This document shows positions 1,169-1,250 of a DNA stretch of 4,368 bases, in pieces. The stretch comes from a virus (Duplodnaviria; Heunggongvirae; Uroviricota; Caudoviricetes). The notes below the pieces were generated by a model, which saw only the letters and a program-made list of their open reading frames with translations, did not search any database and had not been told where the DNA came from. Within the stretch, counting starts at the first letter, position 1, and the number at the start of each line of letters is the position of its first letter. The stretch lies in IMG/VR virus record IMGVR_UViG_2671180915_000012; one strand, given 5' to 3'. The position numbers were made by a program, and so were the translations under genes.

Positions 1169-1230
1169 TTGATTTTATTCGTAACAAGTATTTTTTATAT
1201 TTTAATAACATATTTAAAGCAGATAATAAA

Positions 1231-1250
1231 AAACCCGCCTGAGCGGGTTT
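1231..1250. terminator. Rho-independent terminator hairpin, strongest for minus-strand transcripts (end of cspB transcript), weakly bidirectional
   Basis: AAACCCGC-CTGA-GCGGGTTT forms an 8-bp GC-rich stem with a 4-nt loop. Minus-strand tail is TTTTTTATTAT; plus-strand tail is the weaker TAATATT. Confidence 0.65.

Follow-up and report, generated by a model that had tools for sequence, protein, structure and literature searches.

Two look-alike terminator modules in the late region of a Qin-like prophage are probably two independently derived bidirectional intrinsic terminators, each placed where plus- and minus-strand transcription units converge. One of them (copy 2) would be the phage's late terminator tR' and the other (copy 1) the terminator of the csp cassette. 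This explanation is based on where the modules lie, on how stable their folds are and on the fact that each copy has a phyletic distribution of its own. Their resemblance is most likely due to a generic design of A-run, AAACCCGC stem and T-run, to which a short AT-rich flank match was added by coincidence.

The window, by which we mean the whole stretch of 4,368 nucleotides that was analysed, matches the Qin-like prophage late region of E. coli strain 2013C-4974 with 100% identity over positions 1-4270. Late transcription runs right to left in window coordinates, from Q through the late promoter, the terminator and the cargo to the lysis genes (Table 1). The best-strain identity stops at 4270, where an IS3-family element (IS1203/IS629-like, 4271-4368, starting MTKNTRFSPEV...) interrupts the DUF968 gene. 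At the other end, an 80-aa ORF (7-249, plus strand) corresponds to a RefSeq hypothetical protein, and its 3' end overlaps the opposite-strand ydfR-like gene.

Table 1. Features of the window, and hairpins in related phages (positions in their own records), with the basis of each assignment or a remark.
Feature	Position	Strand	Basis or remark
ydfR-like DUF1327	215-580	-	
Holin S (essQ)	564-779	-	PF04971 and annotation; first late lysis gene downstream of the slot
Variable cargo slot, holin to tR'	792-2549	both	limits, at 791 and 2550, of the homology to SfV, mEp460, Ayreon and PhiR47_1
ynfU, 56-aa zinc-ribbon protein	998-1168	+	PF23499 and annotation
11-mer TATTTAAAGCA, copy 1	1211-1221	+	AT-rich spacer after ynfU
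Terminator 1: GATAAT, A-run and hairpin AAACCCGC-CTGA-GCGGGTTT	1222-1250 (hairpin 1231-1250)	both	scan, fold, orthologues
Right-flank word TACTTTTT, copy 1	1261-1268	+	common to both copies; complementary to AAAGCA of the 11-mer
cspB	1532-1747	-	5' leader to ~1908
cspF	2048-2260	+	ORF and annotation
ynfS (29-aa ORF of the sequence-only reading)	2315-2404	+	PF23697, E 3.9e-20; conserved in Citrobacter
11-mer TATTTAAAGCA, copy 2	2541-2551	+	final GCA already within the conserved tR' module
Predicted leader RNA, late promoter to tR', ~64 nt	2553-2616	-	read from sequence; start site inferred
Copy 2 hairpin AAAACCCGC-TCATCA-GCGGGTTTT	2554-2577	both	scan, fold, conserved in csp-less phages
Right-flank word TACTTTTT, copy 2	2579-2586	+	within the plus-strand U-tract and the early transcribed region of the late promoter
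Putative late promoter pR' (TTGCAT, 17 nt, TAAAAT)	2623-2651	-	between the Q stop codon and tR'
Q antiterminator quuQ/ydfT, 250 aa	2683-3435	-	PF03589 Antiterm, E 1.5e-53, plus DnaJ-type zinc finger
DUF968 ydfU	from 3449	-	
Moron-flanking hairpins, Ayreon (L002)	3304-3323, 3981-4000		
Moron-flanking hairpins, mEp460 (L001)	3573-3592, 4250-4269		
Moron-flanking hairpins, PhiR47_1 (L004)	2697-2716, 3374-3393		
Single hairpin (empty site), SfV (L003)	3381-3400		bordered by the Q-side flank and by the sequence that lies downstream of the second copy elsewhere

Form and fold of the two modules

The presence of similar modules at 1211-1250 and 2541-2577, first noticed in a sequence-only reading of the window, is real: the 11-mer, the A-run and the AAACCCGC/GCGGGTTT hairpin occur in both. 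In each copy the 11-mer is followed by AAAAACCCGC, a loop and GCGGGTTT, the loops being CTGA in copy 1 and TCATCA in copy 2, and copy 1 carries six additional bases (GATAAT) compared with copy 2. The modules also bracket cspB, cspF and a 29-aa ORF, as that reading had stated, and this ORF is YnfS.

Both hairpins were scored as intrinsic terminators by the scan, and consist of a GC-rich stem-loop followed by a U-tract. The minus-strand folds reach -15.5 kcal/mol (copy 1) and -21.3 kcal/mol (copy 2), with z scores of -3.6 and -5.7, and the plus-strand folds -15.8 and -14.4 kcal/mol, respectively; at most one of 200 shuffles (0-1/200) was as stable as either hairpin. The stronger U-tract of copy 1 is its minus-strand tail UUUUUUAUUAU, the plus-strand one being weak (UUUAAUAUU), whereas copy 2 has the tails UUUUUGUGCUUU on the minus strand and UUUUCUACUUUUU on the plus strand. 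Each copy thus has an A-run upstream and a T-run downstream and lies between convergent units, the arrangement of a bidirectional terminator: copy 1 between ynfU (+) and cspB (-), copy 2 between cspF-ynfS (+) and Q-pR' (-). AAAGCA of the 11-mer is complementary to TACTTT of the right flank, and the same outer helix (AAAGUA/UGCUUU) appears in the minus-strand minimum free energy folds of both copies. Rfam searches at either copy returned only sub-threshold leader and sRNA matches, driven by the terminator shape.

Separate distributions of the two copies

Copy 2 appears to be the prophage's own tR', downstream of Q and part of the phage backbone, because its hairpin is kept in csp-less phages with the same Q, lies next to Q and the promoter and has been annotated as a terminator. 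It sits 106 nt past the Q stop codon, behind TTGCAT-17-TAAAAT, and is the first terminator after Q and the late promoter and before the lysis genes; copy 1 does not hold this position, being 1.3 kb further on and inside the cargo. The putative pR' belongs to a block that is 96% conserved among phages having this Q, and was left unflagged by the consensus promoter scan (its -35 hexamer matches at 3/6 positions). The csp-less phages SfV, mEp460, Ayreon and PhiR47_1 encode the same Q (95-96% identity) and carry other cargo. Their alignment to the window runs from 4270 down to 2550, through the copy 2 hairpin and its minus-strand T-run, and resumes only at 791. Copy 2 is conserved with the Q/pR' module in these four phages and in 689R6, and copy 1 is present in none of the five. 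The SfV and Ayreon records annotate the element as a terminator, and 689R6, also csp-less, even has the right flank TTTTCTACTTTTT of copy 2. Of the copy 2 11-mer only (T)ATTTAAA is peculiar to the csp-bearing lineage, GCA belonging to the conserved module; K-12 and most other lineages have CATTTAAAGCA at copy 2, which shortens the shared word to 10 bases. The tR'-type identity proposed from the sequence is right for copy 2, which lies downstream of Q.

The variable slot between holin and tR' contains ynfU, terminator 1, cspB, cspF, ynfS and two linkers (792-958 and 2405-2540), and the second linker had no relatives outside the Qin context among the phages and E. coli genomes searched. The edge of the slot lies at 791, not at 1211-1250, and therefore ynfU and copy 1 are inside the cargo. 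Copy 1 is internal to the slot and also to the core that is shared with other genera (959-2374), so that the repeats do not stand at the two ends of the insert. The idea that the two copies mark the boundaries of the cassette holds for copy 2, where csp-less homology stops at 2550, but not for copy 1, the other edge being by the holin. In sister phages the same Q-S slot holds other cargo (a methylase, tRNAs, a porin), and the cassette of the window brings its own signals (a cspA thermoregulator leader and terminator copy 1), as expected of moron-type cargo. In a search for ynfU without cspB, the two genes were contiguous in 1,624 of the 1,655 E. coli records.

To probe for the empty site, 5,426 E. 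coli genomes were searched with a chimeric query made of the ynfU side up to the 11-mer and the tR' side. No single-copy junction was found in them, and the expectation that csp-less relatives would show a single copy at an empty site was not borne out. Only four records were covered over at least 80% of the query, and all of these keep cspB and have lost only cspF, by a deletion between CCCCAT microhomologies. The csp-less phages have one hairpin, tR', without ynfU and without the 11-mer; none of them has both copies. The sequence-only reading had named the presence of both copies in such relatives as an outcome that would refute duplication, and this outcome did not occur. Natural variants have lost cspF and ynfS: 1986-2537 is absent in SF-468 (L130) and in L136, and 2251-2507 in Tritos (L007). 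In SF-468 the deletion junction lies between CCCCAT microhomologies, and its endpoint coincides exactly with the left edge of the copy 2 module.

Copy 1 is best read as the native two-way terminator of the convergent ynfU and cspB, which would have arrived with the cassette and would not be a copy of tR', because an orthologous hairpin occurs in cassettes of other genera, including one at a non-phage locus and one in a prophage with another Q. A scan guided by the YnfU protein recovered 63 loci across Enterobacteriaceae (L133-L195), many of them with the ynfU/cspB/cspF arrangement. The window is collinear with three Citrobacter loci from ynfU through cspF at ~75% identity, and the alignment with one of the three, FP75, extends into ynfS. 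The stem of the hairpin between ynfU and cspB (AAAACCCGC...GCGGGTT) is invariant in Escherichia, Citrobacter, Raoultella, Klebsiella and Superficieibacter while the loops vary, and the GATAAT/A-run flank of copy 1 is also found in Citrobacter. In Raoultella planticola the cassette with its hairpin is chromosomal, between dehydrogenase and LysR genes and without phage genes. The FP75 cassette lies in a prophage with a Q of another family (PF06530), and no window-type hairpin was found between that Q and the cassette. The inner copy is thus present in four other genera where the cassette sits elsewhere, where a repeat generated by insertion should be absent. The 11-mer is found at copy 1 only in Escherichia versions of the cassette, the aligned Citrobacter sequence being TATCAAGCTACAG or TTGTTAAAG. 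The hairpin-less cassettes of PHB10 and Enterobacter have a stretch, GATGCTTTTGG, that is homologous to the right flank of copy 1 with its word TACTTTTT.

The same form, GATAATAAAA-AACCCGC...GCGGGTTTTTTATTATC, recurs in terminators that adjoin other csp genes, in loci of Enterobacter, Leclercia and Silvania. These terminators share an extended near-palindrome, GATAAT-A-run-AACCCGC...GCGGGTT-T-run-ATTATC (L168 3887, L173 3398, L181 3872, L185 3317, L189 3874, L195 3318), which suggests a conserved csp-gene terminator type across several genera. The ynfU-cspB-cspF(-ynfS) block is widespread in Enterobacteriaceae, also beyond prophages: its settings include the R. planticola chromosome, an island of Citrobacter braakii by ars genes and a tRNA remnant, and phage PHB10, where it lies near the integrase. 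A Klebsiella phage has holin and ynfU without csp. The C. braakii sequence GGCACAAAAAAACC after the cassette at first resembled an SfV-type tR', but is actually the terminator of the tRNA remnant.

Other elements of the cassette were also recognized. The cspA thermoregulator (Rfam RF01766) matches the cspB leader and coding sequence (1469-1908, minus strand) with 156.7 bits against a gathering score of 78. The 280-nt region downstream of cspB is ~79% conserved with the PHB10 and Enterobacter cassettes. Between cspB and terminator 1 (1270-1420, minus strand) there are two conserved small hairpins and a possible small ORF (...CCMNS.(K/T)AEANC...), annotated in PHB10 as a 41-aa protein; this stretch could encode a small protein or form a structure in the 3' UTR. 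Both YnfU and YnfS have been reported before as small proteins, and YnfU is encoded in the Qin prophage region and has been detected as a protein (10.1101/511675).

Possible origins of the shared flank

The hairpin itself is generic: a search with the copy 1 region gave matches at E<=1 in 423 phage records, among them Pseudomonas, Klebsiella and Vibrio phages, and most of these matches cover the hairpin. As to whether the identity of the copies exceeds that of unrelated terminators, the hairpin does no better than these, but the 10-11 base flank is rarer than expected. When the hairpins were held fixed and the 45-nt flanks shuffled 5000 times, the observed score was reached by 13 shuffles for the left flank (~0.3%), by 284 for the right flank and by 2 for both together; the shuffle keeps the overall composition of the flanks and ignores the local bias (A-rich left, T-rich right), and probably overstates the surprise. 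Among 190 pairs of unrelated two-way terminators from the fetched loci, the longest shared flank word had at least 9 bases in 2% and at least 10 in none. The surprise is nevertheless weakened, because two-way terminators are constrained to A-rich and T-rich flanks, because the Citrobacter spacer is already near the 11-mer (TATTCAAGTTACAG, TTGTTAAAG) and because position-free 11-12-mers are common between unrelated sequences of such size.

No constraint on the 11-mer is visible in the sequences compared, where variants occur both among lineages and within SF-468. In the latter the same G of the 11-mer was changed independently, one copy now having T and the other A (TATTTAAATCA, CATTTAAAACA). 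Two further accounts of the match were rejected. TTTAAA is not a common flank motif of terminators, being present in only 2 of 26 non-redundant ones, and so fails to explain the match. Gene conversion or concerted evolution between the copies does not agree with the retention of different loops, of the indel and of independent SNPs. The 6-nt indel (GATAAT) is ancestral.

According to the sequence-only reading, the csp genes were inserted at tR' and duplicated the terminator module, so that the copies would be a direct-repeat scar at the ends of the insert. The copies are indeed collinear and bracket cspB, cspF and ynfS, and the csp-less relatives have one copy only, tR'. Such a mechanism does operate within this family of phages. 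In mEp460, Ayreon and PhiR47_1 a 677-bp moron, with ORFs of 141 and 37 aa (PHROGs of unknown function), lies between tR' and a second hairpin nearly identical to it (AACCCGCCACTGAGCGGGTTTTTTGT), and SfV has the single-copy empty site; on comparison of their sequences, these three phages and SfV seem to offer a clean case of terminator duplication around cargo, in the same slot but not for the csp cassette. For the window such an origin is extremely unlikely, and the phyletic data already contradict it: orthologues of the copy 1 hairpin and flanks occur without a window-type tR' nearby (the Raoultella chromosome, the Citrobacter prophage with its other Q), and the copy 2 hairpin and right flank are found in csp-less phages. 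The variable slot moreover ends at 791 and not at copy 1, ynfU travels with cspB in E. coli (1,624/1,655 records) and across genera, the loops differ, a 6-nt indel separates the copies, and 5,426 genomes contain no empty site. The fallback offered by the same reading, a reused end-of-gene module, came close, as both copies are two-way terminators at the ends of convergent genes.

The flank could also be a historical trace of recombination between hairpins that are themselves independent, either by microhomology that joined the cargo beside a tR' already carrying ATTTAAAGCA or by a short template switch between the hairpins after the arrival of the cassette. The flank match is unlikely by chance, and the copy 1 11-mer is specific to the Escherichia versions, exactly those that lie beside a window-type tR'. 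ATTTAAAGCA is native to the tR' of another lineage: phages with an unrelated Q (PF06323; L039, L054, L196, L197, L198) have a tR' hairpin nearly identical to copy 2 together with this word (L054 761-793), ~33/35 aligned positions being shared including a 2-base gap (blastn 91%). There, ATT TAA of ATTTAAAGCA ends a convergent ORF as its last codon and stop codon; the 95-aa product looks secreted and matches nothing in Pfam or PHROG. Microhomology-driven rearrangement has occurred at the very spot, namely in the SF-468 cspF deletion, whose CCCCAT repeats end at the copy 2 module. The 11-mer as a remnant of the L054-type ORF was considered and rejected, given that no protein or DNA similarity extends beyond the module. 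Against a trace of this kind, neither a donor nor an intermediate was found, a few point changes suffice to reach the 11-mer from the Citrobacter spacer, the tract would be shorter than 20 nt with homology on one side only, and the linker beside copy 2 has no relative outside the Qin context. On balance we consider it unlikely.

Selection acting twice is a further explanation, in which the 11-mer and TACTTTTT would form a functional outer helix on the late-strand RNA, for instance for two-way termination or as an RNA processing site. The AAAGUA/UGCUUU helix of both minus-strand folds agrees with this, as does the double use of both flanks as extended U-tracts for the two directions. However, conservation of the 11-mer extends neither to the orthologous terminators of other genera nor to the tR' of phages that have this Q but no csp genes, the G of AAAG is disrupted by natural variation in both copies, and an A-rich left and a T-rich right flank of any two-way terminator pair by default, which makes a functional helix very unlikely. 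The broader proposal that AAACCCGC-type terminator hairpins with short conserved flanks serve as portable joints for stacking cargo in the lambdoid Q-S slot, with the 11-mer (also seen in the unrelated-Q tR') as a trace and the 677-bp moron as a fresh example, is in our view improbable as well. If true, it would add a mechanism for moron shuffling, for which the csp cassette provides weak evidence.

Independent origin of the two terminators, which is preferred here, has to accommodate three observations that count against it: the 10-11 base flank identity is rarer than for unrelated terminators (~0.3% of shuffles; 0/190 pairs reach 10 bases), TACTTTTT is complementary to the 11-mer so that the same outer helix is possible in both copies, and a third lineage (the L054 type, Q of PF06323) has ATTTAAAGCA beside a near-identical tR' hairpin. 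The flank complementarity and the L054-type tR' are compatible with a short recombination trace or with the sharing of a tR' variant, and do not rescue the duplication.

Transcription of the slot and known counterparts

Actual termination, Q read-through and the insulation role of terminator 1 we infer as follows. In the lysogen, tR' (copy 2) would stop the short pR' transcript just after Q and, in the opposite direction, would end cspF-ynfS transcription. Terminator 1 would end cspB transcription, which points at the holin, and also that of ynfU, and would prevent transcription driven by cold shock from entering the lysis genes. In the lytic cycle, Q-modified polymerase starting from pR' would have to read through both terminators to reach S. 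The cassette is carried by the isolated phages 2H10, Tritos, HannyBb, PhiR42_1 and PhiR63_1, and therefore their late transcription must pass terminator 1.

A lambdoid late control region consists of the Q gene, the pR' promoter, a short leader RNA and the tR' terminator, and in lambda the leader is the 194-nt 6S RNA. The window resembles this region in that copy 2 comes just after a Q of the lambda-Q family (PF03589) and a plausible promoter, and is followed by cargo and the lysis genes. By contrast, the leader predicted for the window has only ~64 nt compared with the 194 nt of lambda, and the tR' hairpin has an opposite-strand U-tract, with which it may double as the cspF-ynfS terminator. 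Bidirectional intrinsic terminators at convergent gene pairs of E. coli are a concept that has been discussed before (10.1101/2022.10.23.513370). Both copies share the arrangement of A-run, GC-rich stem-loop and T-run between convergent units and do not differ in kind, although the plus-strand U-tract of copy 1 is weak. Morons carry a promoter and a terminator of their own and, as self-contained transcription units, separate genes that are direct neighbours in related phages (PMC3594210). Like these, ynfU-cspB-cspF-ynfS occupies the Q-S slot and brings its own terminator (copy 1), but it has four genes, arranged in divergent and convergent units, instead of a single one, and has a non-phage locus in R. 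planticola. Direct repeats generated by insertion resemble the present case in that two collinear similar sequences bracket genes, with a genuine example in mEp460, Ayreon and PhiR47_1; the copies of the window differ from such repeats by separate ancestry, by loop and spacing, and by lying off the cargo boundaries.

All parts of the region thus fit known kinds, namely a lambdoid Q/pR'/tR' switch, bidirectional terminators and moron-type cargo, and are ordinary. The sequence-only reading made a correct observation, and its evolutionary interpretation was mostly incorrect. Beyond correct annotation this is of little importance. A resemblance between terminators says little about where an insert begins and ends, because the hairpin sequence recurs in hundreds of unrelated phage records, and the unit of cargo is ynfU-cspB-cspF-ynfS, more than the csp genes alone. 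Within this unit, terminator 1 probably protects the holin and the lysis genes beyond it against transcription of cspB induced by cold.
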